Shown: positions 1,514 through 24,557, counted from the first letter of the stretch. The stretch is 64,000 nt of DNA from an uncultured Candidatus Saccharibacteria bacterium (GCA_964509605.1 CAZDXF010000002.1:25514-89513), one strand, 5' to 3'. Numbers and translations are program-made. The notes: a model not told the origin generated them from the sequence alone.

Positions 1514-2266
1514 ATGCAAAATATCACTATTTTTACTGATGGGGCGTCTAGAGGAAATCCGGGTAAAGGGGGATGGGGAGCAATCATTATTTTTTCAAAT
1601 AAAAAAATAATGATTGCGAATAATGAAAAAGGAAAGATGAATGACGAGGTGAGAGAACTAGGAGGGCGAGATGGGAACACTACCAATAACAGAATGGAAC
1701 TCACGGCTGTTATTGAATCTCTGAATTTTGTATCTAAACTGGCTACTGATTACTCTCTACTGATTACTATTTACACCGATTCCTCTTATGTAATGAAAGG
1801 CGCTAAAGAGTGGGTTCACGGTTGGCAGAAAAATAATTGGAAGACAAAGGCGAAGCAGGCAGTTTTGAACCAAGATTTGTGGCAGAAATATTTGAAAGTA
1901 AGTGAAGGGTTAAAAATAGAATGGCACTTGCTCAAAGGGCACTCCGGTATTCCAGCAAATGAGCGCTGTGATGAAATAGCAACAGCTTTTGCCGACGGCA
2001 AAACCCCTAAACTCTATACTACAATTCTGCAGAATTACAGTATAGATTTGTCTGTGCCTCCTACATCTACAACTAAAAGCTCTAAGCTAAAACCTAGGAG
2101 CTCGTCAAAGGCTTATTCTTATGTCAGTTTGGTTAGGGGAGTTGTGAAAACTCATAAAACTTGGGCAGAATGTGAAAATAGAGTCAAAGGTGTTTCTGGC
2201 GCTAAGTTTAAAAAATCTTTTTCTCCAGAAGATGAAAAAGAAATAATAAACTCATGGTCCCGTTAG
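1514..2266 (+). CDS. rnhA: Ribonuclease HI with C-terminal RNA/DNA hybrid-binding (Cauli_VI-like) domain
   Basis: N-terminal TDGASRGNPG...MELTAV...HSG RNase H catalytic motifs. The C-terminal ~50 aa (YSYVSLVRG...TWAECENRVKGVSGAKFKKSF) resemble the hybrid-binding domain. Confidence 0.8.
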   Translation: MQNITIFTDGASRGNPGKGGWGAIIIFSNKKIMIANNEKGKMNDEVRELGGRDGNTTNNRMELTAVIESLNFVSKLATDYSLLITIYTDSSYVMKGAKEWVHGWQKNNWKTKAKQAVLNQDLWQKYLKVSEGLKIEWHLLKGHSGIPANERCDEIATAFADGKTPKLYTTILQNYSIDLSVPPTSTTKSSKLKPRSSSKAYSYVSLVRGVVKTHKTWAECENRVKGVSGAKFKKSFSPEDEKEIINSWSR

Positions 2267-2367
2267 AAACAGCAGAGGGTAAATAGCAGATTGCAAAATG
2301 CTTAAGCAGGAGAACCCAAAAACATTTGAAACGAAAAATAGCACAGACCCTCTTGTTTCTAACGGGA
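2258..2367. repeat. Palindromic intergenic element, family A, copy 1 (arms TCCCGTTAGAAAC / GTTTCTAACGGGA)
   Basis: Inverted arms at 2258-2270 and 2355-2367, extendable to ~20 bp. Begins at the rnhA stop and overlaps the annotated N-terminus of the comEC ORF. Confidence 0.5.
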
Positions 2368-3893
2368 TAAAAGTGAGACAAGTTTCTATAAAAGAAAAGG
2401 TATTTTTTTCTATAATCTTCGGATTTATTTCAGGGGTTTTAATTTCTTCTTTAATAAATTTGCCCGGTATGTTTTTTCTTTTACCACTTTTTCTATCTTT
2501 AGTATTCTTTCTGTATTCATTTTTTATAAAAGAAAAACAAAATATAAGCATTTTTATTGTTCTGTTTGTTTCCTTGCTTTTATTTGGTCTGGGGGTCTTG
2601 AGATATGAAGGAAAAGATTCTTTTTATATTGAAGGCGAACTCCAATCTAGAGTCGGAGAAAGGGTTTTTGTCAGTGGCGTTGTTGACCGAGAACCAGAAC
2701 TAAGAGAATCTTACTCTCAGTCGATTTTAAAAATTTCTCATTTCAATGCCTCGGACGGTTGGGAAGAATCTTCTGGAAAAATTTTGATAAGAGTGGAGCC
2801 GTATCCGGAAATATTTTACGGAGACGAGGTGGAAGTAGAAGGGGTCGTTAAGTTGCCGGAAAAATTTGAAACAGAAAGCGGAAGACTTTTTGATTATGAG
2901 TCGTATCTTTCAAAAGACGATGTTGGACTTATTTTAAACTTTGGGAAAGCGGAAGTGATTTCAAGAGGAAATGGTGGTTTTTTGAAATACAGACTGCTGT
3001 CTTTCAAGAAAAGTTTTGTAGAAAATATAGAGAGATCTTTGCCAGAACCTTTTTCTTCTTTAATGAATGGTATTTTACTTGGAATAAAAAGTTCTTTGGG
3101 TAAAGACTTAGAAGATGATTTGCGAAAAACAGCAATCATACACATTGTTGTGCTTTCCGGATACAACATTACTCTCGTTGCGCAGTTTGTGATGAAGTCC
3201 CTGTTTTTTATTAATAGAAAAAAAGCCCTTATCGCAAGTATTTTAGGAATCGCCCTATTTGCCGTCATGGTCGGGGGAGAACCTTCTGTCGTCAGAGCTT
3301 CTCTTATGGGCATACTCGCCCTATTGGCCAGAGGGACGGGGCGGAGGCATGACATTACTAGAGCTTTGTTGGTTGCAGGTTTTGTTATGATTGCCTGGAA
3401 TCCAAAAGTTTTGCTCTTTGATTTGGGATTTCAGCTTTCCTTTATCGCCACACTGGCTCTAATATGGCTCGCGCCATTTTTTGAGAGAAAATTAAAAACT
3501 TTATCGGAAAAATTTGAATTTCGTTCTATAGTTTCGGCGACAATTTCAACTCAGATTTTTGTTTTGCCCCTTCTTTTGTATCACACTGGTGAAGTTTCTT
3601 TGGTTGGAGTGGTGGTGAATTTGCTCGTTTTACCGATTGTGCCAATTATTATGTTTTCAGGTTTTCTAATGGGGGCTTTTGGTTTTTTGTCCGGATTTAT
3701 AGCATTTCCTTTTTCCGTAATTTCTCACCTCCTTCTTTTCTACACACTTAAAGTGGTTGAATTTTTCGCTTCTCTCCCGATTGCCTCTATCTCTATTTCA
3801 AAATTTTCTTTTTTGTTTACGATTTTTCTATACGCCTTGTTGGCCCTTATTGTTTCTAAGCTTCGGAAGTCAAAAGAAAATCCCAATCTTTAA
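2298..3893 (+). CDS. comEC: ComEC/Rec2 DNA-uptake channel, membrane domain only; true start probably GTG near 2371
   Basis: Many TM helices and the competence-domain motif HIVVLSGYNIT. The first ~25 codons of the ORF lie inside repeat copy 1, so the start is likely downstream. Confidence 0.7.
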   Translation: MLKQENPKTFETKNSTDPLVSNGIKVRQVSIKEKVFFSIIFGFISGVLISSLINLPGMFFLLPLFLSLVFFLYSFFIKEKQNISIFIVLFVSLLLFGLGVLRYEGKDSFYIEGELQSRVGERVFVSGVVDREPELRESYSQSILKISHFNASDGWEESSGKILIRVEPYPEIFYGDEVEVEGVVKLPEKFETESGRLFDYESYLSKDDVGLILNFGKAEVISRGNGGFLKYRLLSFKKSFVENIERSLPEPFSSLMNGILLGIKSSLGKDLEDDLRKTAIIHIVVLSGYNITLVAQFVMKSLFFINRKKALIASILGIALFAVMVGGEPSVVRASLMGILALLARGTGRRHDITRALLVAGFVMIAWNPKVLLFDLGFQLSFIATLALIWLAPFFERKLKTLSEKFEFRSIVSATISTQIFVLPLLLYHTGEVSLVGVVVNLLVLPIVPIIMFSGFLMGAFGFLSGFIAFPFSVISHLLLFYTLKVVEFFASLPIASISISKFSFLFTIFLYALLALIVSKLRKSKENPNL

Positions 3894-3944
3894 CTTTTGG
3901 CGTTTTTGTAATTGCTCTCCACTACTGACCAGTTAAGGTTGGCG

Positions 3945-4016
3945 AAAAAATCTTCCACCCCGAACGAAACAACGCTCCACTGACGTGGAACGGTTTCTTA
4001 CGGGGCGAGAAGTGGT
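3945..4016. repeat. Structured repeat, family B, copy 1 (AAAAAAtcTTCCACCCCGAACGAAAC...ACGGGGCGAGAAGTGG)
   Basis: ~70% identical to 15341-15410, with shared nested hairpins (cccc/gggg outer stem, gaaac/gtttc inner stem). Confidence 0.4.
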
Positions 4017-4628
4017 CTATTTAAGCGCGGTTTTGTAGTTTTGTTCTATGTTAGCCCAATTTACATTGGAAAAAAAATCTTCAACATACTGTTTTTTACC
4101 GCTTGGATTATAGTCTGCAACATACGCATGTTCCCACATATCAAGTCCGAGAATCATTTTTGCACCATTTAGCATGCCTAAGTGTTGTTCGTCCACCCAC
4201 GAATTTAAAAGTCTGTCACTTGCCTTGTCGTACCACAATACCTGCCAACCAATACCTCTGGTGGTAGTTGCTTGAGTTTTAAATTCTTCGAGCCAAAGCT
4301 CAAAAGATCCCCAAATTTCTTCAATTTTTTTCTTGAGCTCTGAATCTTCAGATATGGTTTTATAACCGCCTTTAAAAGAGGAAAAATATATTTCGTGATT
4401 CCTCATTCCGTTGTATTCAAAGCTGAACCTGCGTCCCAACTCTCCCACCACATAAGGAGCGAAGTTGTCACCCTCGGCATATTTTCTGTATTCAGGCATT
4501 TTTTCGATAATAGAATTGGCATTTTTTACATAACCGGAATATAGTTTCAAATGCTCCTCTATGTTTTTTTCAGAAATTCCTTTGAGCTTGGGAATTTCAA
4601 ATTTCTTTTCAACAAATTGTTTTGTCAT
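4017..4628 (-). CDS. sodA: Fe/Mn superoxide dismutase family protein
   Basis: C-terminal DMWEHAYVADY motif and overall SOD architecture. The N-terminal His-ligand region is diverged. Confidence 0.65.
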   Translation of the reverse strand: MTKQFVEKKFEIPKLKGISEKNIEEHLKLYSGYVKNANSIIEKMPEYRKYAEGDNFAPYVVGELGRRFSFEYNGMRNHEIYFSSFKGGYKTISEDSELKKKIEEIWGSFELWLEEFKTQATTTRGIGWQVLWYDKASDRLLNSWVDEQHLGMLNGAKMILGLDMWEHAYVADYNPSGKKQYVEDFFSNVNWANIEQNYKTALK

Positions 4629-4679
4629 AATTAAAGAGGTTTAATTTCTAATAGCTGAATTATATCAGTAGCGCCGAAG

Positions 4680-5537
4680 ATGCTCCAATTTTTAAAGAAA
4701 AATTACAAAATTTTAAGCATAGGACTGCTTTTGTTCTTTAATATAACAATCTGGATTTTTGTTTTTGCTGAGAAGCCAAGAAGTTTTGTCGAAGTTTCGT
4801 TTTTGGATGTTGGGCAAGGCGACTCAATCCTGATAGAGGCAAGGAATGGTAATCAGGTTTTGTTTGATTCGGGGCCAAACAGAAAGGTGTTGTCAGAACT
4901 TTCAAAAGAATTACCTTTTTTTGACAGATCTATAGATATTCTTGTTGCTACTCATCCAGACACTGATCATATTGGCGGTTTCCCAGAGATTGTTAAAAGA
5001 TATAAAACAAGATTGTTCGTTGAGCCAGGGATAGGTTCGGAAACATCTCTTTATAAAGAGCTTAAAAATAGACTCAAGGCGGAGAGGGTCTCGGTTTTAG
5101 AAGCCAAAAAAGGAATGGTTATCGATTTGAAAGATGGAAGCTTTATAGAAGTCTTTTTTCCTGATAGAGATATTTCTGGCCTTGATCCAAACGACGCTTC
5201 TATTATCGCTAGATATGTGTTTGGAGAAGTTTGCTTTCTTTTGACAGGAGATGCTTCGCAGAAAATGGAAGAGTATGTTTTGAGTCTAGAAAAAGAAGAC
5301 CTGAATTGCGATGTGTTAAAGGTTGGACATCACGGATCAAAAACCTCCACTTCACCTGCTTTTGTCTCAGCTGTGTCTCCGAGTGTTGCGATAATTTCTG
5401 CTGGAAAAGATAATAGATATGGTCATCCACACGAAGAAGTTTTGGAAACCTTAGAAAAAGCAGGTATTGAAATATTAAGTACGGCTCAGATGGGTACTAT
5501 AAGAATGAGGACAGATGGAAAGAATCTAAATAAATGA
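4680..5537 (+). CDS. ComEC-type metallo-beta-lactamase domain protein (separate ORF), with N-terminal TM helix
   Basis: Motifs VSFLDVGQGDS, HPDTDHIGG and VGHHGS match the ComEC C-terminal MBL domain. Confidence 0.7.
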   Translation: MLQFLKKNYKILSIGLLLFFNITIWIFVFAEKPRSFVEVSFLDVGQGDSILIEARNGNQVLFDSGPNRKVLSELSKELPFFDRSIDILVATHPDTDHIGGFPEIVKRYKTRLFVEPGIGSETSLYKELKNRLKAERVSVLEAKKGMVIDLKDGSFIEVFFPDRDISGLDPNDASIIARYVFGEVCFLLTGDASQKMEEYVLSLEKEDLNCDVLKVGHHGSKTSTSPAFVSAVSPSVAIISAGKDNRYGHPHEEVLETLEKAGIEILSTAQMGTIRMRTDGKNLNK

Positions 5538-5550
5538 AAACGCCACCAAG

Positions 5551-5862
5551 CTACAAGCGGTGGCGTTCCAGGACAGTCTCTATCTCTTTTCGGATTTTCT
5601 CCGAATCCGATCCGGCGTATGGAGTCACCTTGATTTTGCCATCTTCTAGAGCGACAAATTCAATATCGGCGATCCTTACAAGGTCGGACAGCATCGGCCC
5701 TGCCATTCGGCAACATTTCATGTAAGAGATGACTCCTCCAATGAAAGACTTGCTGTTAACCGATGGGCAGATGTGGGCAACACAACAGAGATAGAAGGGC
5801 GGGCTAAATTCCAGAACGACTCTGGTATTGCTTTCGCCACTGACTTCCGCAAGGACTTCCAA
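5551..5862 (-). CDS. Hypothetical Cys-rich protein
   Basis: ORF only. A convergent hairpin at 5544-5575 could serve as a bidirectional terminator. Confidence 0.3.
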   Translation of the reverse strand: MEVLAEVSGESNTRVVLEFSPPFYLCCVAHICPSVNSKSFIGGVISYMKCCRMAGPMLSDLVRIADIEFVALEDGKIKVTPYAGSDSEKIRKEIETVLERHRL

Positions 5863-5973
5863 TCTTCCTCCTTGAGAGCGACTTTCAATATTTTCTCACA
5901 ATAGATTTTTAATCGAAGTGGACAAAAAATTCCGACACAGAGTCGGAATTTTTTGAAGTAAGTGTTTTATTTT

Positions 5974-6216
5974 TTATATCACCCCAGCTTTTTTCAGTGC
6001 CTTGTATGGGCCTACTTTCTGTATAGTTTTTATGCCTCTTGTGGAAATATTCAGAGTAATTGTCTTCTTGAGTTCTGGAATGTAAATTTTCTTTTTCTGT
6101 ATATTGGCAAATTTTCTGGTTTTTCCGGTAGGGTTAAACTGTGTGGCACGAGTTCTGTTGCTGTAGCCACCTCCTACTTTTGAACTTTTTTTTGTAATAA
6201 CGCAGATTTTTGCCAT
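5974..6216 (-). CDS. rpmB: 50S ribosomal protein L28
   Basis: MAKICVITKK...basic 80-aa protein matching the bL28 N-terminal pattern. Confidence 0.75.
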   Translation of the reverse strand: MAKICVITKKSSKVGGGYSNRTRATQFNPTGKTRKFANIQKKKIYIPELKKTITLNISTRGIKTIQKVGPYKALKKAGVI

Positions 6217-6221
6217 AATTC

Positions 6222-6875
6222 TTGAGCGTCTATGCTATCATTGGTTTTGTAAATAATCAAGAGATGGACTTTGTATTTCAAATTGCAATCCTAATACTTT
6301 CAGTCGTCATTCACGAGGTGTCTCATGGCTATTCAGCGTATTTGTTGGGTGACAGAACGGCTTATTATCAAGGTCGCCTATCAATGAATCCAGTTCGTCA
6401 CTTGGATCCGTTCGGTTCATTTATCGTACCCCTTATTTTTTATAGTTTCGGTGGTTTTATTCTTGGATGGGCCAAACCTGTCCCTTATAATCCTTTTAAC
6501 TTAAAAAATCAGCGATGGGGGGAAGCGATCGTTGCCTTTGCGGGACCTCTTTCAAACATTCTTATCGCTATCATTTTTGGCCTGATGATTCGTTTTCTGT
6601 ATCCTATGGCAATTCTACCAGAGTCTTTTTTCATGATCGCTCAGTTTGTGGTTCTTATAAACATAATATTGGCCATTTTTAATCTGGTACCAGTACCACC
6701 TCTGGATGGTTCTAAAATCCTTTTTTCTGTCCTGCCATACCATATGCAAGAAGTTCGGTATTCTCTTGAAAAGTACTCAATTTTCCTAGTTCTCCTTTTC
6801 GTATTCTTTTTATGGAGGTTTTTGTACCCAGTAATCACATATATTTTTGGGCTATTAACAGGTCTTAATTTCTAG
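6222..6875 (+). CDS. Site-2 protease family (peptidase M50) membrane metalloprotease
   Basis: HEVSHGY HExxH motif inside a TM helix, with multiple further TMs. True start may be M15 (~6264). Confidence 0.7.
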   Translation: MSVYAIIGFVNNQEMDFVFQIAILILSVVIHEVSHGYSAYLLGDRTAYYQGRLSMNPVRHLDPFGSFIVPLIFYSFGGFILGWAKPVPYNPFNLKNQRWGEAIVAFAGPLSNILIAIIFGLMIRFLYPMAILPESFFMIAQFVVLINIILAIFNLVPVPPLDGSKILFSVLPYHMQEVRYSLEKYSIFLVLLFVFFLWRFLYPVITYIFGLLTGLNF

Positions 6876-6957
6876 ACTTTGAATATTTGCTTTTTTTAAA
6901 CTATTGTATTAAAGTTGTTTGCACTTGCTTCCCAAAGCATTTTTTGTTTGAGCCAAT

Positions 6958-7371
6958 ATGGCGAGGATAAATCAGCTTGTAAAAAGGAATAGAAAAAAAT
7001 TGCGCCGAAAGCCCAAGTCGGTCGCTCTTACTCGTGGTTTTAATACTCTTAAAAATAGACCGGTTTTGTTCAATTCTCCTTTCAAAAGGGGTGTTTGCAC
7101 AAAGGTAACCACAAAAACTCCTAAAAAACCAAACTCGGCTATTAGAAAAATTGCCAGAGTTCGTCTTACAAACGGAATGGAGGTTACTGCATATGTTCCG
7201 GGGATGGGACACAATCTTCAAGAACACTCCGTCGTTGTTCTTAAGGGGGGAAGAGTAAAGGATGTTGGTCTAAGATACTCCGTTGTAAGAGGTGTTCTTG
7301 ATGCTGGTGGAGTAGAAAACAGAAAGAAAGGAAGAAGCCAGTATGGTGCTAAAAGACCTAAGAAACAATAA
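6958..7371 (+). CDS. rpsL: 30S ribosomal protein S12
   Basis: Conserved S12 sequence (PKKPNSA...GGRVKD). Confidence 0.9.
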
Positions 7372-7373
7372 AA

Positions 7374-7844
7374 ATGCGAAGAAAAGTTAAAAACAGAAAG
7401 GCAGTTGGACCAGACTCGGTTTACCAATCGGTAAAAGTTGCCAAACTCATAAACTACTGCATGGAGCAAGGCAAGAAAAACACCGCAAGAAGAGTCGTTT
7501 ATTCTTCACTTGATTTAATAAAAGAAAAAGAAAAAGGGGTTGAGCCTTTGGAAGTTTTGGAATCTGCCCTAAGAAACACAAGTCCTACAGTTGAGGTTAG
7601 ATCTAGAAGAGTTGGAGGCGCCAACTATCAGATTCCTAGAGAGGTTCGACCTGAAAGGAGGTTGGCTCTCGGTATGAAGTGGATCATAGAATCTGCTAGA
7701 AATAGAAAAGGAGCTCCTATGCACATAAAACTCGCAGAAGAAATAATCTCTGCTTCAAAGGGGGAGGGTGAGGCCGTTAAGAAAAGAGAAAATACTCACA
7801 AGATGGCAGAGGCCAACAAGGCTTTTGCTCACTTTGCCTGGTAA
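7374..7844 (+). CDS. rpsG: 30S ribosomal protein S7
   Basis: S7 sequence; position after rpsL. Confidence 0.9.
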   Translation: MRRKVKNRKAVGPDSVYQSVKVAKLINYCMEQGKKNTARRVVYSSLDLIKEKEKGVEPLEVLESALRNTSPTVEVRSRRVGGANYQIPREVRPERRLALGMKWIIESARNRKGAPMHIKLAEEIISASKGEGEAVKKRENTHKMAEANKAFAHFAW

Positions 7845-7901
7845 TTGAGTGTTTATCGTTCGCGGTTTTTAGTTTATAGATTTAATTTTTAATATTTAAA
7901 T

Positions 7902-10055: not shown

Positions 10056-10091
10056 GCAGTAGACAGTGGTCAGTAGTTAGTAGACAGTGAA

Positions 10092-13804: not shown

Positions 13805-14188
13805 ATGGCAGCAATTTTTGGAAAAAAGAAAAAAGATAAAGTGGAAGAAGCACCAAAAGAAGTGGTGAAGCAATCCTCTGAATCAAAGAAGACGGCTCCC
13901 ATTGTTTCTTCAGACTTTAAAAACCCCCTTCTCTCCCCGAGAATTACTGAAAAAGCTTCTGAAAGAGCTATGAACGGGAATGCCTATGTTTTTAATGTGG
14001 ATCAAAGGGCGACAAAAAAAGATATTTCAAAAGCCGTATCAAAAATTTACAAAGTTTCTCCGGTCAAAGTTTCTGTGGTTAGGATCCCAAGAAAGCAGAT
14101 TGTCGTGAGAGGGAAAAAGGGCATGCGTCCTGGTGGTAAGAAAGCCTATGTTTACTTGAAAGACGGAGACAAAATAGAATTTGTATAG
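13805..14188 (+). CDS. rplW: 50S ribosomal protein L23
   Basis: L23 C-terminal core with an N-terminal extension; operon position. Confidence 0.8.
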   Translation: MAAIFGKKKKDKVEEAPKEVVKQSSESKKTAPIVSSDFKNPLLSPRITEKASERAMNGNAYVFNVDQRATKKDISKAVSKIYKVSPVKVSVVRIPRKQIVVRGKKGMRPGGKKAYVYLKDGDKIEFV

Positions 14189-14198
14189 AAAATCATGA

Positions 14199-14281
14199 AT
14201 CCCGTTAGAAAGGACAAAAAAATAGGTTGCTATGGTCAAATTGCTTATCAATATGTTATAAGTAGTACTTTCTAACGGGAT
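14199..14281. repeat. Palindromic intergenic element, family A, copy 2
   Basis: ATCCCGTTAGAAA (14199-14211) / TTTCTAACGGGAT (14269-14281). The 3' arm ends in the rplB ATG. Confidence 0.5.
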
Positions 14282-15119
14282 GAAAAAATTTAGACCAACA
14301 ACACCATCACGCAGGCAAATGACCACCATCAATTATGCCCGCATCCTAACAAAAAAAGACCCAGAAAAGTCTCTCACTTCTGGTTTTAAGCGTTCTGTTG
14401 GAAGAAATAACCAAGGTAGAATTACAGTCAGACACAAAGGTTCTGGCCACAAAAGACTTTATAGACAAGTTGATTTTTCATACAACAAAATAAATATTCC
14501 CTACACTATAAAATCTATCGAATACGATCCAAATAGAACCGGTTTTATAGGTTTGGCGGTTTATAAAGATGGTGAGAAAAGATATGTCCTTCTTCACAAA
14601 GAAGCTAAAGTTGGCGATGAATATATTGTTTCCGAGAACGCTTCAATAACAGCGGGAAACAGGCTCCCTCTTAAAAATATAGGAGTTGGAACATTTGTTT
14701 TCAATGTTGAAGTTAAGCCAAGAGGGGGGGCGAAACTCGGAAGGTCTGCTGGTAATTTTATAGAAGTTGTAGCAAAGGATGCTGGTTATATTGACTTGAA
14801 AATGCCTTCAAGTGAAATTAGAAAAGTTAGCGAAAATTGCTGGGCTACTGTCGGTGAGGTATCAAACGAAGAGAATCGTTTGGTCAATCTTGGAAAAGCG
14901 GGCAGAAGCAGATGGTTGGGTATTAGGCCTACAGTTAGAGGTTCTGCAATGAACCCAGTTGATCATCCGCACGGAGGTGGAGAGGGGCGTTCAGGAAGAG
15001 GTCACAGGAGAGCTCGAACAGCTACCGGAAAACCAATAGGAAAGGGTCAAAAATCTCGCCGATCAAAGAAATACTCAAATAAGTTTATTGTTAGAAGAAG
15101 GAAGGTGGGGAAGAAGTAG
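14280..15119 (+). CDS. rplB: 50S ribosomal protein L2
   Basis: L2 sequence (GRNNQGRITVRHKGSGHKR...). Confidence 0.9.
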   Translation: MKKFRPTTPSRRQMTTINYARILTKKDPEKSLTSGFKRSVGRNNQGRITVRHKGSGHKRLYRQVDFSYNKINIPYTIKSIEYDPNRTGFIGLAVYKDGEKRYVLLHKEAKVGDEYIVSENASITAGNRLPLKNIGVGTFVFNVEVKPRGGAKLGRSAGNFIEVVAKDAGYIDLKMPSSEIRKVSENCWATVGEVSNEENRLVNLGKAGRSRWLGIRPTVRGSAMNPVDHPHGGGEGRSGRGHRRARTATGKPIGKGQKSRRSKKYSNKFIVRRRKVGKK

Positions 15120-15340
15120 AAACTAGCTGTTAGTTTGCTTTTAAATCCGAATCCCCTATATAGCTTAAATCCAAAAGCTAGAAGCTAACTTTCATTTGAC
15201 ACAAAGCCCTTATTTGTATAGTATCTTTGGAAGCTCGTTCGAGCTTTTTATGTTCGTATTTTTATTTTTTCAGGTCTTAGCTGTTTAAACTAAAAGCTAG
15301 CGACTAAAAACTGACAACTTATTTAATGACACGCTCAAGC

Positions 15341-15410
15341 AAAAAAGGTCCACCCCAAACGAAACGACAGTCGGCAAGCGACCCGTTTCGTACGGGGCGA
15401 GAGGGGGCGG
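15341..15410. repeat. Structured repeat, family B, copy 2, in the unusually long rplB-rpsS spacer
   Basis: AAAAAAGGTCCACCCCAAACGAAAC...ACGGGGCGAGAGGGGG. Flanked by a 27-bp duplication of the rpsS start (15326-15352 = 15451-15477). Confidence 0.4.
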
Positions 15411-16174: not shown

Positions 16175-16185
16175 TTTTAATATTT

Positions 16186-16854: not shown

Positions 16855-16865
16855 TTTTAGAGATT

Positions 16866-17285
16866 ATGTTATTCCCAAAGAAAGTAAAATTTAGAAAATG
16901 GCATACTATGCGCCGAAACAAGGACAGAGCTCAGGTTGCCACTCGCGGAGCTTCTGTTGACTTCGGTTCTTTCGGTTTGAAATCAGCGGAAGCGGGTAGA
17001 ATCAGATCAAACCAAATAGAAGCTGCTAGAAAAGTAATTTCACGATATTTGGGAAAAACTGGAAAGACTTGGATTCGTATTTTTCCTGATATGCCTTATA
17101 CTCAGAAGCCCGCAGAAGTAAAAATGGGTAAGGGCAAGGGTGATTTGCAGGGGTATTGCGCTCCAGTTTTACCGGGAAGGGTTCTTTTTGAGGTTGATGG
17201 TGTGGCAGATGCCATCGCTAGAGAAGCTTTAAGAAAAGCCGGTACTAAGCTTCCAGTAAAAACAAGAGTTGTTGCAAGACAATAA
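16866..17285 (+). CDS. rplP: 50S ribosomal protein L16
   Basis: L16 sequence (KFRKWHTMRR...). Confidence 0.9.
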   Translation: MLFPKKVKFRKWHTMRRNKDRAQVATRGASVDFGSFGLKSAEAGRIRSNQIEAARKVISRYLGKTGKTWIRIFPDMPYTQKPAEVKMGKGKGDLQGYCAPVLPGRVLFEVDGVADAIAREALRKAGTKLPVKTRVVARQ

Positions 17286-17293
17286 ACAGTCAT

Positions 17294-17488
17294 ATGAAAG
17301 ATTTGAAAGACAAAAACGAAAAAGATTTACAGAAGATGCTTCAGGAGAAGAGAGAGTCTATTCAGTCTTTTAGATTTGGTGTTGCTGGCAGTAAGGTCAG
17401 GAATGTAAGAGAGGGTAGAAATTTAAAAAAGGATGTTGCGCGTATTATGACAGAGATATCTTCAAGGAAGAATAAAGAAATAAAATAA
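17294..17488 (+). CDS. rpmC: 50S ribosomal protein L29
   Basis: Size and position; L29-like helical protein. Confidence 0.8.
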
Positions 17489-17489
17489 C

Positions 17490-17750
17490 ATGGAAAATAA
17501 TTCAGAAAAAAAGCAAGTATCCTTGAACGGGAAAAAATTTTCCGGGGTTGTTGTGTCTGACAAGATGAAAGATACAGTTGTTGTTCTTGTAGAAAGATAT
17601 GAAAAACATCCAAAGTATGAAAAATACATACGAAGGAGTAAAAAATACAAAGCTCATGACAAAGACAACACAAAGCGAATCGGAGAAAAGGTTACGATAC
17701 AGGAGACCAAACCAATTTCAAAAGACAAAAGATTTATAGTAATTTCATAA
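17490..17750 (+). CDS. rpsQ: 30S ribosomal protein S17
   Basis: S17 sequence; operon position. Confidence 0.85.
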
Positions 17751-17751
17751 A

Positions 17752-18123
17752 ATGATTCAACCACGATCCATTGTTAAAATAGCAGACAATTCCGGAGCCA
17801 AAATCGGGCGTATTTTCAAGGTGTTAGGAGGTTCAAAAAAGAGATATGCCAGAATTGGAGATTTGGTAGTTCTTTCTGTCCAGTCTGCCCAACCAAGAAA
17901 GCAGATTAAGAAAAAAGATGTGTTATACGCTGTTGTGGCAAGGCAGAAATATCCTTTCAGAAGAGCGGACGGATCTTATATAAGATTTGATGAGAACGCT
18001 GTGGTTATTGTTGATAAAACAAAACACGAGCCAATTGCCGGTCGTGTATTCGGCCCCATTCCAAGAGAGCTTGGAGAAAAAGGCTTTCAGCAGATCATTT
18101 CTCTTGCTCCGGAAGTTGTATAG
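17752..18123 (+). CDS. rplN: 50S ribosomal protein L14
   Basis: L14 sequence (MIQPRSIVKIADNSGAK...). Confidence 0.9.
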   Translation: MIQPRSIVKIADNSGAKIGRIFKVLGGSKKRYARIGDLVVLSVQSAQPRKQIKKKDVLYAVVARQKYPFRRADGSYIRFDENAVVIVDKTKHEPIAGRVFGPIPRELGEKGFQQIISLAPEVV

Positions 18124-18131
18124 TGGAATGA

Positions 18132-18249
18132 ATCCCGTAAGAAATCGCGATCGCTTTATTACAAAACAAACATGTCGACAATAAATAATTTATCAGTTAT
18201 ATTCACAGTGGATTACGATCAGATGATCGCGATCTATTTCTAACGGGAT
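18132..18249. repeat. Palindromic intergenic element, family A, copy 3
   Basis: ATCCCGTAAGAAATCGCGATCGC / GATCGCGATCTATTTCTAACGGGAT. The 3' arm ends in the rplX ATG (18248). Confidence 0.5.
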
Positions 18250-18553
18250 GAAAATCAAAAAAGGAGACAATGTAATAGTGATTTCAGGTAAAGACAAAGG
18301 AAAAACAGGAAAAGTTTCTCGCTCTTTTCCTCGTGAAAACAAAGTAATTATTTCTGGGGTAAATATTAAAAAAATTCACAAGAGACCGACCAAGTCAGGT
18401 CAAAAAGGTCAGGTAATAGATCAAGCTTCCCCTATTCATGTATCAAATGTTATGATTGCCGATCCAAAAAATAACAAACCAAGCAGGGTGGGTTTCTTAA
18501 AAAAAGGGGATAAGAAAGAAAGAGTTTCAAAAAAAAGCGGATCTGCAATATAA
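18248..18553 (+). CDS. rplX: 50S ribosomal protein L24
   Basis: L24 KOW-domain sequence (MKIKKGDNVIVISGKDKGK). Confidence 0.85.
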   Translation: MKIKKGDNVIVISGKDKGKTGKVSRSFPRENKVIISGVNIKKIHKRPTKSGQKGQVIDQASPIHVSNVMIADPKNNKPSRVGFLKKGDKKERVSKKSGSAI

Positions 18554-18563
18554 ATAAAATCTA

Positions 18564-19124
18564 ATGGAAACAATAAGGAAAAAAGAAAAGAAAGCTTTTG
18601 AAGCCCTGAAAGATAAAATGGGTTATAAAAACCTTATGCAATCTCCAAAGATTGTTAAGGTTGTCGTATCTGCTGGCACGGGCTCTTTCAAAGATCCTAA
18701 AAAGAAAGAATTGGCAATTGATAGAATTACTAAAATTACTGGTCAGAAGCCTTCTGTTAAGGGTGCAAAACAATCGGTGGCCGCTTTTAAAGTTCGACAG
18801 GGAGACCCAGTAGGACTCCAAGTAACTCTTAGAGGAAAGAGAATGTATGATTTTTTGGATAAGCTCATAAACATAGCATTGCCCAGAACAAAAGACTTTA
18901 GAGGTATTTCTATAAAATCCATTGATGATATGGGCAATTATACTCTTGGAATAAGAGAGCATATAATTTTTCCGGAAACCACGGATGAAGAGCTTAAAGA
19001 TGTCTTCGGTTTGGCGGTCACGGTAGTCACTAGTGCTAATAGCAAGGAAGAGACAAAAGCTTTCTTGGAACATCTGAATTTTCCATTCAAGAAAGAGGAA
19101 GAAAACCAGGGCAAAAAGAGGTAA
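18564..19124 (+). CDS. rplE: 50S ribosomal protein L5
   Basis: L5 sequence. Confidence 0.9.
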   Translation: METIRKKEKKAFEALKDKMGYKNLMQSPKIVKVVVSAGTGSFKDPKKKELAIDRITKITGQKPSVKGAKQSVAAFKVRQGDPVGLQVTLRGKRMYDFLDKLINIALPRTKDFRGISIKSIDDMGNYTLGIREHIIFPETTDEELKDVFGLAVTVVTSANSKEETKAFLEHLNFPFKKEEENQGKKR

Positions 19125-19196
19125 AAACCTTTATTTGACAAGCTTTTATTGCCTTGATAGGATGTAGCTCCAAAGCTTTCAAGAGCTTTTTATTTT

Positions 19197-19382
19197 ATGG
19201 CAAAGAAATCAGTTATAGCCAGATCTCTTAAAAAACCCAAATATGTAAGTAGGGTTGTTCGACGTTGTTTTAAATGCGGAAGGAAGCGTGGCTATATGAG
19301 AGATTTCGATCTTTGCAGAATCTGTTTTAGAGAACTTGCCAATGAAGGCAAAATTCCAGGTATAAAAAAATCTTCTTGGTAA
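19197..19382 (+). CDS. rpsN: 30S ribosomal protein S14 type Z (zinc-binding)
   Basis: 61 aa with CxxC...CxxC. Confidence 0.85.
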
Positions 19383-19386
19383 TAAT

Positions 19387-19770
19387 ATGACCGATCCTAT
19401 TTCTGACATGATAATAAGAATTAAAAATGCTGGAGAGTCCAGAAAAGAGACTTTGGTATTTCCTTATTCAAAATTAAAAATGGAAATTTGTTCTGTTTTG
19501 GAAAAAAAAGGTTTTATTAAATCAGCTTCTAAAAAGGGCAAGAAAACCAAAATGATAGAAGTTGTTTTGGTTGAAGGCAGAGAACCTCACATAAGGGGTG
19601 TAAAGAGGGTTTCAAAACCATCAAGAAGGATTTATAAAAAATATTCAGAATTGAGGCCTGTAAAAAATGGCTATGGAGCTTTGGTCCTTTCAACACCAAA
19701 AGGGATAATGACAAATCTGGAGGCTAAAAAAGATCGCCTCGGTGGTGAAGCCTTGTTTGAAATTTGGTAA
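19387..19770 (+). CDS. rpsH: 30S ribosomal protein S8
   Basis: S8 sequence (MTDPISDMIIRIKNA). Confidence 0.9.
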   Translation: MTDPISDMIIRIKNAGESRKETLVFPYSKLKMEICSVLEKKGFIKSASKKGKKTKMIEVVLVEGREPHIRGVKRVSKPSRRIYKKYSELRPVKNGYGALVLSTPKGIMTNLEAKKDRLGGEALFEIW

Positions 19771-19774
19771 AAAT

Positions 19775-20311
19775 ATGTCTAGAGTCGGAAAACAAATAAT
19801 TCAAATACCGGAGAAAGTAGAAGCGAAAATTTCTGAGAATATTTTTTCTGTAAAAGGACCCTTGGGCGATCTATCAAGGGAGATTCCAGAGAATCTCAAG
19901 GTTTCTGTTGAAAATGGATCAGTGTCTATTTCTCCCGTCTCAAATCCAGAGGCACTATCTGCCATATGGGGAACTTACAGTTCGCATATTTATAATATGG
20001 TAGAGGGAGTTTCAAAGGGTTTTGAGAAAAAACTTTTAGTTGAGGGGATTGGTTTCAAAGCTGATCTTAAGGGTGATAAGCTCGTTCTTGCCTTGGGATT
20101 TTCTCATCCGGTAGAAGTCTCTGTTCCTAAGGACTTAAAAGTTTCTATTGAAAAAAATACGATTTCTGTTTTTGGTGCTGATAAAGACAAGGTTGGTAGC
20201 TTCGCTTCTTATGTCAGATCTTTAAAGAAACCGGAACCTTACAAGGGCAAGGGCATAAGGTATGACGGTGAAGTTATAAAAATAAAACAAGGTAAGAAAT
20301 CAGTTGCGTAA
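19775..20311 (+). CDS. rplF: 50S ribosomal protein L6 (start moved to MSRVGKQ)
   Basis: L6 sequence. The ORF's GTG N-terminal extension overlaps rpsH and is rejected. Confidence 0.85.
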   Translation: MSRVGKQIIQIPEKVEAKISENIFSVKGPLGDLSREIPENLKVSVENGSVSISPVSNPEALSAIWGTYSSHIYNMVEGVSKGFEKKLLVEGIGFKADLKGDKLVLALGFSHPVEVSVPKDLKVSIEKNTISVFGADKDKVGSFASYVRSLKKPEPYKGKGIRYDGEVIKIKQGKKSVA

Positions 20312-20663
20312 GATGAATAAGACAAAAGCAAAAAAAGAAAAAAAAGAGAGGAGACAGCGCAGAATACGTGCCAAGGTTTCCGGTACTTCAGAAAAACCAC
20401 GACTTTCTGTTTTCAAGTCAAATAAGTTTTTATATGCACAAATTATTGATGACGAGATAGGTAAGACTTTGATTTCTGCTTCAACAAAAGAAATAAAACA
20501 GGGTGATGAGGCAAATAAGCCCAAGTCCTTAGGTGAGCTTATCGCCAAAAAAGCAAAAGAAAAAAATATTTCAAAAATAGTTTTTGACAGAAGTGGCTAT
20601 ATTTACACTGGGAAAATAAAAGATTTTGCTGATGGAGCTAGGGCTGGTGGACTTTCTTTTTAA
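20304..20663 (+). CDS. rplR: 50S ribosomal protein L18
   Basis: L18 sequence. Confidence 0.85.
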   Translation: MRKMNKTKAKKEKKERRQRRIRAKVSGTSEKPRLSVFKSNKFLYAQIIDDEIGKTLISASTKEIKQGDEANKPKSLGELIAKKAKEKNISKIVFDRSGYIYTGKIKDFADGARAGGLSF

Positions 20664-20667
20664 TTTT

Positions 20668-21291
20668 ATGAATACAGAAGACACAAAAATAAATAACGAA
20701 GAGGTTGTTTCAGAAAAGGAATCAACAGAAATTCCAGATGAAAATAAAGCGGTTGAAAATTCCGCTGAACCTTCTGCTAAGCCAAAAAATAAGGAATTTA
20801 AAAAGAATCCAAGGAGAGCCGTAAGAAAAGAGGGTAGGGTCAAATCTGAGTTTGATCAGAAGATTGTAAGTATCAGAAGGGTTACTAGGGTTGTTGCCGG
20901 AGGAAGAAGGTTTAGCTTCAGCGTTACCTTGGTTGCTGGAAATAGAAAAGGCAAAGTTGGTGTTGGCCAAGGAAAGGCGGGAGACACTCCAATTGCTATC
21001 GACAAAGCAATGAGAAATGCTAAAAAGAATATGATTGAAGTAAAACTCACAAAAAGCGCCTCTATTCCTCACGATACAAGCGCTAAGTTTGGAAGCTCAA
21101 ATGTTCTTATTATGCCCGCTCCGGGAAGAGGGATTCTTGCAGGAAGCTCCGTTAGAACAGTTTTGGAGCTTGCGGGCGTTAACTCTGTAAATGCTAAAAT
21201 TTTGTCAGGATCAAAAAACAGTGCAAACATTGCAAAAGCAACAATAGAAGCGCTTAAAGAATTTTCAAAAACAAGAAAGAAAATATCTTAA
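20668..21291 (+). CDS. rpsE: 30S ribosomal protein S5 (start at MNTEDTK)
   Basis: S5 dsRBD and C-terminal domain, with an acidic N-terminal extension. Confidence 0.85.
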   Translation: MNTEDTKINNEEVVSEKESTEIPDENKAVENSAEPSAKPKNKEFKKNPRRAVRKEGRVKSEFDQKIVSIRRVTRVVAGGRRFSFSVTLVAGNRKGKVGVGQGKAGDTPIAIDKAMRNAKKNMIEVKLTKSASIPHDTSAKFGSSNVLIMPAPGRGILAGSSVRTVLELAGVNSVNAKILSGSKNSANIAKATIEALKEFSKTRKKIS

Positions 21292-21295
21292 AAAT

Positions 21296-21736
21296 ATGCA
21301 ATTAAATAATTTAAAAAGAAAAAGCCCAAATAAAAAAGCCCGACAAGTTGGTCGTGGTGGCACCCGTGGTAAAACTTCTGGAAAAGGAACCAAAGGCCAG
21401 AACGCAAGAGCTGGAAGAAAAAAGAGACCGGAAGAAAGAGACATGATAAAGAAGCTTCCAAAGATGAGAGGAAGAGGAAAAAACATAAACACTAGTATCC
21501 AAACAAAACCAAAAGCTATTAATCTTTCAGACATCGAAAACCTTTTTTCTTCTGGAGAGACTGTTTCTGTGGAGACTTTGATAGCAAAAGGCGTTTTGTC
21601 TATAAAAGGCGGAACAAAACAAAAGGTTAAAATCCTTTCTCAGGGTGATATTAGTAAAAAACTTTCTTTTGTTTCTTGTTTAGTTTCAGAGCAGGCAAGG
21701 AAGAAGATAGAATCTGCCGGCGGAAAAATTTCTTAA
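21296..21736 (+). CDS. rplO: 50S ribosomal protein L15
   Basis: Gly/Arg/Lys-rich L15 N-terminus. Confidence 0.85.
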   Translation: MQLNNLKRKSPNKKARQVGRGGTRGKTSGKGTKGQNARAGRKKRPEERDMIKKLPKMRGRGKNINTSIQTKPKAINLSDIENLFSSGETVSVETLIAKGVLSIKGGTKQKVKILSQGDISKKLSFVSCLVSEQARKKIESAGGKIS

Positions 21737-21737
21737 A

Positions 21738-23009
21738 ATGAGTAAATTTTTTGAAAAAATAAGACTTGTATTCGGTGATTCGTCTCTTCGCCGAAGGATT
21801 TTGTTTGTATTGGGTGCTCTTGTGATATTTAGAATCCTTTCAACGATACCAATTCCCGGTATTGATGGAGACAGACTTCAGGCATTTTTCTCTAGCAATG
21901 AATTTTTGGGACTACTAAACCTGTTTTCTGGTGGTGGTCTTTCAAATCTTTCAATAATAATGCTTGGAGTTGGTCCATACATAACGGCTTCTATCATAAT
22001 GCAACTTCTAACTATCATGTCTCCAAAACTGAAGGCTATGTATCAGGAGGAGGGTGAGGCTGGAAGGAAGAAATTCACCCAATACAGCAGGCTTCTGACG
22101 GTACCTTTGGCAATAATCCAAGGTTTCGGTTTTTTGACCCTGCTTTCTAGACAGGGAGTAATAGACGCTCTTCCAACTTTTGAAATGATTACAAACCTTC
22201 TTTTGATTACAGCCGGCTCAATGCTTATTATGTGGATAGGTGAGCTTATATCAGAATTTGGTATTGGAAACGGAGTTTCAATTATAATTTTTGGCGGTAT
22301 TGTTGCTTCTCTGCCCTCAATTTTGGCTCAACTGTTGTTTACTTTTGATCCTTCTCAAATTCCTTTGTACTTAGCATTTTCTGTAGCCGCTCTGCTCATA
22401 GTTTTGGGTGTTGTGGTTATAACAGAGGCAGAGAGACCAATTCCCATTACCTATGCAAAAAGAGTTAGAGGTATGAAAGTTTACGGTGGCACCTCTACTT
22501 ATTTGCCATTGAGATTAAATCAAGCTGGAGTTATTCCAATTATTTTTGCCCTCTCTATACTCCTGTTTCCTCAAATGATTTTTAATTTCCTATCTGGAAT
22601 TGATAATGCAACCTTGCAAAGAGTTTCTGAATTTATTCTGGGCATTATTTCTAACCAGTGGTTTTATGCGTCCCTATACTTTATTCTTGTGTTCTTGTTT
22701 ACCTACTTCTACACAGCTGTCACATTTGATCCAGATATGATTTCAACCAACCTGCAGAAGGGTGGTGCTTTTGTCCCTGGAGTTCGTCCGGGCCAGCAGA
22801 CCTCTGAATATATTGCAAAAATTCTCACAAGACTGACTCTCGTGGGGGCATTGTTCCTCGGGTTTATAGCCGTTCTGCCTTTATTTATGGGCTCTCTCAC
22901 TGGTATCCAAGCACTTTCAATTGGAGGAACTGGACTATTGATTGTTGTTTCTGTGGTTATAGACTTGATTAAGAAAATAGAGGCTCAAATTTCTGTTAGA
23001 GAATACTAA
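21738..23009 (+). CDS. secY: Preprotein translocase SecY
   Basis: 10-TM SecY; position after rplO. Confidence 0.9.
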   Translation: MSKFFEKIRLVFGDSSLRRRILFVLGALVIFRILSTIPIPGIDGDRLQAFFSSNEFLGLLNLFSGGGLSNLSIIMLGVGPYITASIIMQLLTIMSPKLKAMYQEEGEAGRKKFTQYSRLLTVPLAIIQGFGFLTLLSRQGVIDALPTFEMITNLLLITAGSMLIMWIGELISEFGIGNGVSIIIFGGIVASLPSILAQLLFTFDPSQIPLYLAFSVAALLIVLGVVVITEAERPIPITYAKRVRGMKVYGGTSTYLPLRLNQAGVIPIIFALSILLFPQMIFNFLSGIDNATLQRVSEFILGIISNQWFYASLYFILVFLFTYFYTAVTFDPDMISTNLQKGGAFVPGVRPGQQTSEYIAKILTRLTLVGALFLGFIAVLPLFMGSLTGIQALSIGGTGLLIVVSVVIDLIKKIEAQISVREY

Positions 23010-23111
23010 TTTTAGAAGATAGTTTCTGGTAGTTAGTTAATGCTTGTAGATAGGATATAATAATTTTTGAGCATCACTACTTACTAACCACTGTCTACTA
23101 ACTACTTCTTT

Positions 23112-23687
23112 ATGAATTGTAATACTTTTATATTTGTTGGTGCGCCAGGTTCTGGAAAGGGTACCCAAGCTAATTTTTTGTCTGAAAAGCTCGGCTTGCC
23201 AATTTTTTCTATCGGTGGAAGGCTTAGGGAAATAGTAGCCGAAAACTCTCCTTTGGGTAAGAAAGTCGGAGAAGTTATAGATAAAGGAGGGCTGATGCCT
23301 TCTTGGTTTGTTTTATATTTTTGTGAAGATGTTCTTTTTAATTTGAAAGAAGAAGAGGGTATTATTTTTGATGGTGTTGGGCGAAAAAAAGAAGAGGCCG
23401 AAATTTTTTCGCAAGCATGTCTCTGGTTGGGTAGAGATTTCAAAGTTGTTTTTATTGATGTACCAGAAGATGTGGTTAAGGAAAGAATAGAAAAGCGCAG
23501 ACAAGAGGGTCGTAAAGATGATGCTCCAGAGCGTTTAGCTGAAAGATTTAAAAATTATCATGATCACACTCTGCCTGCGATTGAACATTTTCGTTCTCTT
23601 GGAAACTTAATTGAAGTAAACGGGAATCAGGCACCAGAAGAAGTGTTTTCAGAGGTTTGGGAAAAAGTCTCATCCTTATGTCAATAA
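23112..23687 (+). CDS. adk: Adenylate kinase
   Basis: P-loop GAPGSGKGTQ; position after secY. Confidence 0.85.
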   Translation: MNCNTFIFVGAPGSGKGTQANFLSEKLGLPIFSIGGRLREIVAENSPLGKKVGEVIDKGGLMPSWFVLYFCEDVLFNLKEEEGIIFDGVGRKKEEAEIFSQACLWLGRDFKVVFIDVPEDVVKERIEKRRQEGRKDDAPERLAERFKNYHDHTLPAIEHFRSLGNLIEVNGNQAPEEVFSEVWEKVSSLCQ

Positions 23688-24451
23688 ATATCAAAAATGA
23701 AAAAGAGATAGAGATTCTCAAAGAAGGCGGAAAGCGCCATTCTTTTATTTTAGAAGAACTTGCTAGAGCGGTTAAGCCGGGCATTTCTTCTTTAACTTTG
23801 AATGAAACGGCAGAGAAGCTTATTGCTGAAGAGGGAGATATTGCCGCTTTTTTAAACTATCGTCCAAAAGGGGCGCGAAGAAAATACCCCGCCTCTCTCT
23901 GTGTTTCTGTAAATGATGAGATTGTGCACGGAATTCCAAATGAAGGTGAAAAAATTTTAAAAGATGGAGATATTGTAACTTTAGATCTCGGTCTTTCTCA
24001 CAAAGGCCTCATAACCGACTCTGCAATCACAGTCGGAGTGGGATCAATAAGTAAGGAGAATGAAGAGTTAATTCAAGCCACAGAGGAAGCTTTATGGGCG
24101 GGTATTGCGGAAGCGAAAGCTGGAAATCATATAGGGGATATTGGTTTTGCCATTGAGTCAGTAGCAAAGAAAAAAGGGTTTTCTTTGGCCCAAGGGCTTG
24201 CTGGTCACGGTGTTGGTCACAGTGTCCACGAAGAGCCATTTGTACCAAATGCTGGCAGAAAAGGGGACGGTCCAGAGCTTAAGCCTGGCATGGTTTTGGC
24301 CATAGAACCAATGCTTGTGGTCGGCAAAGGTGACATTGTTTTATCTGGCGATGGTTATACTTATAAAACCAAGGATAAAAGTTTTTCAGCTCATTTTGAG
24401 CATACCGTAGTTATAACAGAAGGTGAGCCGATCGTGGTAACTTCTGGGTAA
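23678..24451 (+). CDS. map: Methionine aminopeptidase type I
   Basis: Pita-bread fold motifs (metal-binding D, D, H, E, E residues). Confidence 0.85.
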   Translation: MSINIKNEKEIEILKEGGKRHSFILEELARAVKPGISSLTLNETAEKLIAEEGDIAAFLNYRPKGARRKYPASLCVSVNDEIVHGIPNEGEKILKDGDIVTLDLGLSHKGLITDSAITVGVGSISKENEELIQATEEALWAGIAEAKAGNHIGDIGFAIESVAKKKGFSLAQGLAGHGVGHSVHEEPFVPNAGRKGDGPELKPGMVLAIEPMLVVGKGDIVLSGDGYTYKTKDKSFSAHFEHTVVITEGEPIVVTSG

Positions 24452-24557
24452 ACCCCGTTAGAAGCTCGTGCGAGACATTAAATCCGGTGTTCGTCAGAAC
24501 TAAACTTTTCCTTTATTCCACTGGCAAGATCGTGAGGGGCTATGCTTCTAACGGGGT
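24452..24557. repeat. Palindromic intergenic element, family A, copy 4
   Basis: ACCCCGTTAGAAGC (24452-24465) / GCTTCTAACGGGGT (24544-24557). Starts immediately after the map stop. Confidence 0.45.

Follow-up and report, generated by a model that had tools for sequence, protein, structure and literature searches.

Palindromic spacers at gene junctions of a Candidatus Saccharibacteria bacterium are probable copies of a small, trans-mobilized DNA hairpin element

We analyzed a 64,000-nt stretch of DNA from an uncultured Candidatus Saccharibacteria bacterium (GCA_964509605.1, CAZDXF010000002.1:25514-89513; hereafter the window), in which a first-pass annotation made from the sequence alone had pointed to four palindromic elements with conserved arms, each lying between the stop codon of one gene and the start codon of the next. 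All four palindromic spacers were found at the places described, and their flanking genes were as labeled. RNase H, ComEC, Map, and NDK were identified by Pfam, and the L23/L2 and L14/L24 neighbors by the gene table of a public contig encoding the same L2 protein. The limits of each element, taken from its outer pyrimidine (Y) to its outer purine (R), are given in Table 1. The evidence collected below indicates that the four spacers are probably copies of a small non-autonomous DNA hairpin element mobilized in trans, similar in kind to MITEs (miniature inverted-repeat transposable elements) and Rickettsia palindromic elements (RPEs).

Copies 2 and 3, both located in ribosomal-protein operons, share one layout, in which the upstream stop codon is followed by 7-9 nt and then by ATGAA-T-CCCG...CGGG-A-TGAAA. 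The motif ATGAAT ahead of the 5' arm, which had already been noticed, is present in both, as is the direct passage of the 3' arm into the downstream ATG: the last base of the element (A, at 14280 and 18248) is the A of the rplB and rplX start codons, respectively. In-silico deletion of the element together with one repeat leaves, in both copies, the stop codon, 7-9 nt, and ATGAAA..., with normal starts of L2 (MKKF...) and L24 (MKIKKGD...). The old ATG of copy 2 (14195-14197) begins a 26-codon mini open reading frame (mini-ORF) that terminates at the TAA of the 3' arm. Copy 4 reads G-TAAA-C-CCCG...CGGG-G-TAAA, and the ndk start lies 66 nt beyond it. These four full copies do not make up the complete set, as three additional short or diverged hairpins bring the total in the window to seven members; two of the three (3958-4005 and 15353-15397) are sisters, each directly followed by CGAGA. 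Five exact matches to the 12-mer TCCCGTTAGAAA are present in the window, compared to ~0.008 estimated for any random 12-mer within 2 x 64 kb, and the looser pattern CCCGTNNGAAA occurs 11 times compared to 0.41 in shuffles. Chance or low complexity as the source of the arms was thus ruled out by the shuffle controls.

The distribution of the arm pair was assessed by scanning one genome per species (596 Gb) with the pattern CCCGTTAGAAR-N57-87-YTTCTAACGGG. Arm pairs at the same spacing were found in at least 119 genome loci, against ~8 expected by chance in 596 Gb (an estimate). Among the matches listed, the carriers were metagenome-assembled genomes (MAGs) of Patescibacteria (about half), Planctomycetota, Omnitrophota, Desulfobacterota, Nitrospirota, and a few other groups, together with one complete 3.3-Mb chromosome, and the GC content of the loci spanned 0.28 to 0.61. 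The family-wide counts used below (123, 135, or 136 copies) likewise refer to the matches listed. The window itself probably belongs to a Patescibacteria genome, as judged by its gene content and by ribosomal proteins whose best matches are Parcubacteria-labeled loci. Only one viral contig carries the pattern, which disfavors a phage as the vector. A literature search for the arm sequence and by keyword found no description of the element.

The consensus of the element is 5'-Y CCCGTTAGAA R N ... N Y TTCTAACGGG R-3', a non-coding unit of ~30-120 bp whose ends form a 12-14 bp inverted repeat. Ten positions of the stem are fixed, while positions 11 and 12 covary among four pair types and are paired in 91% and 88% of 136 copies, respectively; beyond position 12, pairing drops to background. 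The first 14 pairs are perfect, and the stem has no extrahelical bases. Thus, of the near-identical arms of 13-22 bp initially described, 12 bp and two outer pairs are conserved, and the longer pairing is specific to individual copies. The arms hardly ever occur singly, with 160 inverted pairs against 67 single arms, a number close to the ~56 expected by chance (an estimate). The interiors were correctly described as unrelated: no BLAST match at E<1e-3 was detected among the four window interiors, and 116 of 136 interiors in the family are unrelated singletons at E<1e-5. Comparison of the interiors with flanking sequence gave no matches, ruling out their origin as captured neighboring DNA. Tandem and nested copies share one repeat.

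Two loci show the arms in a larger context. At locus L064 (5058-5165) they enclose a complete tRNA-Ala(CGC) gene, and functional cargo is therefore possible as an interior. In the MAG DX4.bin27 (L007, 2046-2369 and 4832-5155), the element forms part of a 325-bp repeat; a gene for a 686-aa secreted protein lies between two inverted copies of this repeat, and more copies are found on other contigs.

Comparison of the 5' and 3' flanks of 135 copies revealed a direct repeat. Only register 6 gave a positive signal, with per-position identities of 0.51, 0.83, 0.75, 0.74, 0.83, and 0.48, and the central dinucleotide was identical in 95 of the 135 copies, compared to 16.7 by chance. The outermost flank positions are complementary to each other (Y with R) and hence belong to the inverted repeat, not to the duplication, leaving a flanking repeat of four nucleotides, TNAA. 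A 6-bp palindromic target, RTNNAY, was superseded by this 4-nt repeat with element-borne Y/R after the two orientations had been separated. The repeat-oriented target logo is R|TNAA, where the base before the 5' repeat is A in 46 copies, G in 19, and C or T in one each, with no constraint on the base that follows the 3' repeat. Among the repeats are TAAA (26), TGAA (26), TGGA (7), and TGAG (5), and flanks of the GTTGAC type, being the reverse complement of GTCAA, obey the same rule. The earlier proposal that inter-cistronic junctions are targeted as such was not borne out, since the real target is R|TNAA, of which ATGAA starts and GTAAA stops are frequent instances.

Insertion is polar, in one orientation only, beside this asymmetric target. 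Among copies with related interiors, the orientation of the interior agrees with that of the repeat in 23 informative pairs and disagrees in one, the pairs not all being independent. Of 67 oriented copies, 29 have a second, degenerate version of the 3' arm (YGGG) no more than 30 nt from the 5' arm, and only nine have the mirror motif near the 3' arm; for the start-associated copies, the corresponding numbers are 17 and 2. The TAAA class has no coding-strand or GC-skew bias (16 and 15 of 27, respectively), indicating that polarity is not imposed by the direction of transcription or replication, and both biases were rejected as its cause.

The orthologous junctions of related bacteria demonstrate that the element is an insertion. 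In the relatives (50-76% L2 identity) among 80 orthologous loci retrieved with the L2 protein, the rplW/rplB junction consists of a stop codon, 0-30 nt, and ATGAAA, and the rplN/rplX junction has the same empty arrangement; none of the orthologous loci compared carries the element at either place. In a few relatives, it is present at different junctions of that operon, as at the rplC start of L121 and L131, where the interiors are unrelated. A look-up of the exact L2 protein matched the source contig alone and no near-identical strain. The ribosomal operon of another member of Patescibacteria (L067) contains four copies at four gene starts, three of which are ~90% identical to each other. Other, unrelated perfect palindromes occupy the same rplW/rplB and rplN/rplX stop/start spacers in L141, L144, L150, and L137, and in L144 one palindrome is present at both junctions. 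In these bacteria, spacers of ribosomal operons seem to serve hairpin elements generally as landing sites.

The position of the element relative to genes can be explained by the way its ends preserve start and stop codons. Directly after CGGG, 42 of 123 copies have the first base of an ATG or GTG that opens an ORF of at least 70 aa (offset 0). Insertion into A|TGAA leaves the old ATGAA upstream and re-forms an ATG or GTG at the 3' end, the start codon being kept because the last base of the element is a purine that rebuilds R-TGAA. Accordingly, copies with a C...G outer pair read ATGAAC...GTGAAN, with the old ATG upstream and a new start composed of the G of the element and the TG of the duplication. 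Insertion into G|TAAA leaves the upstream TAA stop intact. Start healing and stop preservation together make the element tolerable between tightly packed cistrons, where it is located in this window, and they explain its location at cistron junctions. The excess of copies at gene starts may reflect either target preference, ATGAA being a very common start in AT-rich genomes, or the survival of harmless insertions.

The ends of the element also meet tRNA genes and, at times, protein-coding sequence. The first five bases of the tRNA-Pro acceptor stem in L112 come from the terminal CGGGG, and in L016 and L094 the arm abuts tRNA-Leu. An intragenic copy in L058 (1733-1837) forms, with its repeat, a 111-nt unit that is open in frame between conserved motifs of a Memo-like protein, to which it would add 37 aa (INPVRK...LSNG). 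A PrmC-like ORF in L118 (~5290-5380) contains NPVRE...FLTG...FSNG, which looks like a translated copy, and this prmC copy is probably also intragenic and in frame. Intron-like removal and translational bypass were rejected, as most copies lie outside ORFs and the clear intragenic case in L058 is simply in frame and open.

Taken together, these data favor the insertion of MITE- or repetitive extragenic palindrome (REP)-type elements suggested by the first-pass annotation, based on arms far above chance in the window and genome-wide, flanking direct repeats, and empty orthologous spacers. The element resembles a MITE in being small, non-coding, and multi-copy, in its presence or absence at orthologous sites, in its terminal inverted repeats (TIRs; the 12-bp conserved stem and the outer Y:R pair), and in its target-site duplication. 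Several observations weigh against a trans-mobilized element of this kind. Copy 1 has lost its 5' TAAA, so that the RNase H frame is now closed by a TAG within the arm. Approximately a tenth of the copies have inverted rather than direct flanks (TTCAC...GTGAA). The diversity of the interiors is unusual for a MITE family, whose members share an interior, and here four unrelated interiors lie within 22 kb of the window. The arms are identical across hosts of 28-61% GC, while interior GC tracks the host (r = 0.39), which would require a constraint on the arms. Finally, a search of 0.9 Mb around 119 copies yielded neither an autonomous partner nor a linked enzyme, and the mini-ORFs considered below add a further point of this kind.

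The search for a mobilizing enzyme included several approaches. Arm pairs 140-6000 bp apart enclosed no candidate gene; long-range arm pairs with matching repeats gave no autonomous partner; clustering of 790 ORFs near the copies yielded no recurrent protein family; and no mobilizing enzyme was found among the ORFs around dense arrays. The window itself contains no candidate other than an unrelated large serine recombinase. An autonomous insertion sequence (IS) with the same TIRs was not detected in the ~1.4 Mb searched, which does not prove its absence. A small GIY-YIG-type ORF in L052 (1246-1521) has a conserved RRPLELIY motif encoded by AGACCGTTAGAATT, an arm look-alike with one mismatch that is probably a coincidence. 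The enzyme would act in trans, and since symmetric DDE transposases do not usually give an asymmetric target with oriented insertion, the polarity and the R|TNAA target would fit better a site-specific recombinase reading an asymmetric core or one that recognizes single-stranded hairpins. We further propose, though only tentatively and as the less probable outcome, that the family represents a class of prokaryotic mobile element not described before, a bare hairpin in which only a 12-14 bp stem is conserved and which is moved by a distinct, cross-phylum mobilization system. Under this proposal, a conserved enzyme, perhaps one of the host, would recognize either the element folded as a single strand or its end-to-end junction TTCTAACGGG-RTNAAY-CCCGTTAGAA and insert the element in one orientation at R|TNAA. 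Its ends would be built to re-create start codons and tRNA 5' ends, which would allow it to colonize the compact essential operons of ultra-small bacteria.

A different explanation, also raised by the first-pass annotation, is that the stem is a selected RNA device of polycistronic mRNAs, serving as an RNase III site or as a bracket that joins the upstream stop and the downstream start for translational coupling. The transcribed arms would form a 14-bp stem, and the RNAs of the four window copies fold into a long stem closing a large loop that is more stable than in shuffles (z = -6.6, -4.6, -2.4, and -2.4). Copies located at stop/start junctions of ribosomal-protein operons agree with such a role, but the same junctions lack the element in relatives, and ~60% of the copies do not abut a gene start, many lying away from any. 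The covariation of stem positions 11 and 12 among four pair types can be read as RNA pairing, but covarying ends of an inverted repeat are also expected for transposase-specific subfamilies, and the mismatches on the transcribed strand (3 G·U vs. 9 A·C) are the opposite of what RNA pairing predicts. With no G·U excess, selection for RNA pairing was rejected; direct repeats and a polar target are, moreover, features of DNA. Rfam covariance models gave no match to any copy, either at the gathering score or at E<=5. A translational role is suggested by ATG mini-ORFs that end at the 3'-arm TAA, 4 nt before the gene start (16 of 41 in sense vs. 5 in antisense), by 5' ORFs reading across the element (8 observed vs. 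3.8 expected, P ~0.02), and by an internal GGGAG-N7-ATG mini-ORF in L067 that terminates at the 3'-arm TAA. The mini-ORF excess is weak and leaves room for a secondary effect on translation, so that the RNA is not necessarily neutral; a leader-peptide constraint on the interior was rejected, the excess of read-through ORFs being only weak. There is also a precedent in Neisseria, where RNase III cleavage at the TIR hairpins of Correia elements is documented (PMC10969869). Because the hairpin of that MITE is itself an RNase III site, the mobile-element and RNA explanations are not exclusive. We consider it unlikely that an RNA device is the primary explanation, and effects such as processing or translational coupling would be secondary at most, as a by-product or a later adaptation. 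An intrinsic terminator was also rejected, as the arms are followed by RTNAA and the gene start with no T run, and no terminator-like site coincides with the outer stem; consensus scans for terminators and promoters remained at chance level, with hits not coincident with the stems.

Two further explanations start from the arms themselves. The element could belong to a cassette array, as an attC site of the integron type or as some other recombination site formed by a folded single strand, given its short conserved arms around a hypervariable interior of 60-120 nt. GTTAGAA and TTCTAAC each match 6 of 7 positions of the commonly quoted core consensus GTTRRRY / RYYYAAC, and the end-to-end junction given above would have a geometry like that of a tyrosine-recombinase core site, with 10-11 bp arms around 6 bp. 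However, the box order is inverted on both strands, the 5' arm containing GTTAGAA and the 3' arm TTCTAAC; the perfect 14-pair stem has none of the expected bulges; and the copies are scattered singly in essential operons instead of forming arrays beside an integrase. No tyrosine recombinase was found near the copies and no integrase among the window ORFs scanned. Membership in attC was rejected on box order, bulges, and array context, and we give this explanation very little credence. Alternatively, the arms could have arisen in situ as a protein-binding or DNA-uptake signal, similar to the DNA uptake sequence (DUS) of Neisseria, and been maintained through selection or uptake drive. The arm does not differ between phyla, whatever the host GC, genes for ComEC, ComF, and a type IV pilus are present in the window, and the arm agrees with the commonly quoted Neisseria DUS GCCGTCTGAA at 7 of 10 positions, a match that is not significant given the number of motifs compared. 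An uptake signal is contradicted by the near-chance number of solitary arms compared to 160 inverted pairs, by the absence of the entire unit, interior included, from orthologous sites, and by the target-site repeats that the unit bears. Its density here (~1 per 6 kb) is also far below that generally attributed to known uptake sequences. We give this explanation scarcely any probability.

Several additional features were observed in the window (Table 1). An insert of ~178 nt interrupts the anticodon loop of a tRNA-Ile(UAU) gene on the minus strand and holds an intact tRNA-Ile(UAU) gene between the arms of a 27-nt inverted repeat; the short member of the family lies in the 5' half of the split gene. 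After in-silico removal of the insert and the D-arm hairpin, the sequence is called tRNA-Ile by ARAGORN. A GC-rich block (0.45 vs. 0.38) adjoining a tRNA-Ser(GCT) gene contains the large serine recombinase ORF, which is CcrB/XisF-like, and two inverted-repeat modules around a 315-aa ORF without a family match; this block probably represents an integrated element. Two similar modules occupy the rplB/rpsS and rplE/rpsN gaps; in each, TTGACA-17-TAGNAT is followed by a small hairpin ending in GAGCTTTTTAT, and these may be internal promoters or leaders of the operon.

Table 1. Members of the hairpin family and other features of the 64,000-nt window
Feature	Coordinates	Strand	Length	Flanking repeat	Context and details
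Copy 1	2258-2367	+	110 nt	TAAA, 3' only: 2368-2371	RNase H / ComEC junction; RNase H stop TAG 2264-2266, inside the 5' arm; ComEC start probably GTG 2373
Copy 2	14200-14280	+	81 nt	TGAA: 14196-14199 and 14281-14284	rplW (L23) / rplB (L2) junction; upstream stop TAG 14186-14188
Copy 3	18133-18248	+	116 nt	TGAA: 18129-18132 and 18249-18252	rplN (L14) / rplX (L24) junction; upstream stop TAG 18121-18123; 5' arm variant CCCGTAAGAAA
Copy 4	24453-24556	+	104 nt	TAAA: 24449-24452 (includes map stop TAA 24449-24451) and 24557-24560	map / ndk junction, directly after the map stop codon; C...G outer pair
Short member	37279-37323	.	45-nt hairpin	no clean repeat	inside the D arm of the disrupted tRNA-Ile 5' half; arms TCCCGTATGAAA / TTTCATACGGGA
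Diverged short hairpin	3958-4005	.			between convergent comEC and sodA-like genes; CCCCGAACGAAAC...GTTTCTTACGGGG
Diverged short hairpin	15353-15397	.			in the 330-nt rplB/rpsS gap; CCCCAAACGAAACG...CGTTTCGTACGGGG
Promoter- or leader-like module	15196-15260				rplB/rpsS gap
Promoter- or leader-like module	19135-19200				rplE/rpsN gap
Transfer-messenger RNA (tmRNA) gene	34116-34522	-	407 nt		374-position model
Split tRNA-Ile(UAU)	37040-37340	-
Intact tRNA-Ile(UAU) in the insert	37099-37173
GC-rich block	43900-47730				probable integrated element
Inverted-repeat modules	44218-44308 and 45795-45885		91 nt each
Large serine recombinase ORF	46123-47691
tRNA-Ser(GCT)	47639-47726

The element accounts for gaps of 80-120 nt in the otherwise tightly packed ribosomal-protein operons of Patescibacteria-like genomes, and it calls for caution in annotation, as start codons beside CGGG are chimeras of an element base and duplicated target. 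The presence of the same 12-nt arms at 28-61% GC in many phyla implies that exchange among bacteria living together in groundwater and sediment is recent or still going on, and that a conserved mobilizing activity exists. The enzyme, if found, could add a very compact, orientation-specific DNA insertion system, and the self-healing design is a natural case of essential genes tolerating a 14-bp stem abutting the start codon.

Among known systems, piggyBac/IS1380 ends have a 4-bp T..A duplication (TTAA in piggyBac), and the piggyBac TIR is CCCTAGAAAGATA. These 13-bp TIRs start with CCC and contain TAGAAAG, but their likeness to the arm requires a 2-nt gap, may be due to chance, and serves as a lead only; the present element differs in its asymmetric target and polar insertion, and no transposase of this type was found. 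In attC sites and the forked hairpin attP(+) of phage CTX, a folded single strand is recognized by a tyrosine recombinase. The present element is similar to them in having two short conserved inverted boxes with a variable stretch of ~60-140 nt between, but its boxes are inverted relative to attC, there are no bulged bases and no array or integrase, and the elements are free-standing. Palindrome-associated elements derived from IS200/IS605 are inserted in a polar manner by a 4-5 nt asymmetric target, require DNA hairpins, and have a wide phylogenetic spread. Polar insertion and an asymmetric target are also observed here, with a local hairpin only near the 5' end. In contrast to IS200/IS605 elements, which have a separate subterminal hairpin for each end and no duplication, the ends of the present element pair together and TNAA stands on both sides.

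REPs and REPINs are short extragenic palindromes, sometimes arranged as inverted doublets that form long hairpins, and are thought to depend for movement in trans on a single-copy HUH enzyme that works on single-stranded hairpins. They are lineage-specific and each arm is itself a palindrome, whereas the arm described here is not palindromic and is the same in many phyla. A GTAG or CGTC tag marks one end of REPs (PMC3733652). This tag is not present on our element, which has a TNAA flank at both ends, and no RAYT-like gene was seen near the copies.

The Correia elements, or NEMIS, are Neisseria MITEs that, like the present family, are non-coding, with a length of ~100-150 bp, TIRs, and a short target duplication; they are often co-transcribed with neighboring genes, and their TIRs form a hairpin. 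The TIRs of Correia elements measure 26 bp and differ in sequence, their duplication is TA, their interior is conserved, and they are limited to Neisseria, whereas the element reported here has arms of 12-14 bp, a TNAA repeat at an asymmetric R|TNAA target, polar insertion, unrelated interiors, and hosts in many phyla. RPEs are selfish palindromic elements of small size for which no transposase is known; they are located between genes, within RNA genes, and, in frame, inside protein genes (PMC10969869). The present family is similar in having an in-frame intragenic copy in L058 and probably in L118. It differs from RPEs, which are genus-restricted and have a conserved full-length sequence, in keeping the arms alone, in its defined target and repeat, and in its cross-phylum distribution. 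The likeness to RPEs is therefore one of kind only: the element is set beside them by description, and its hosts belong to unrelated phyla.

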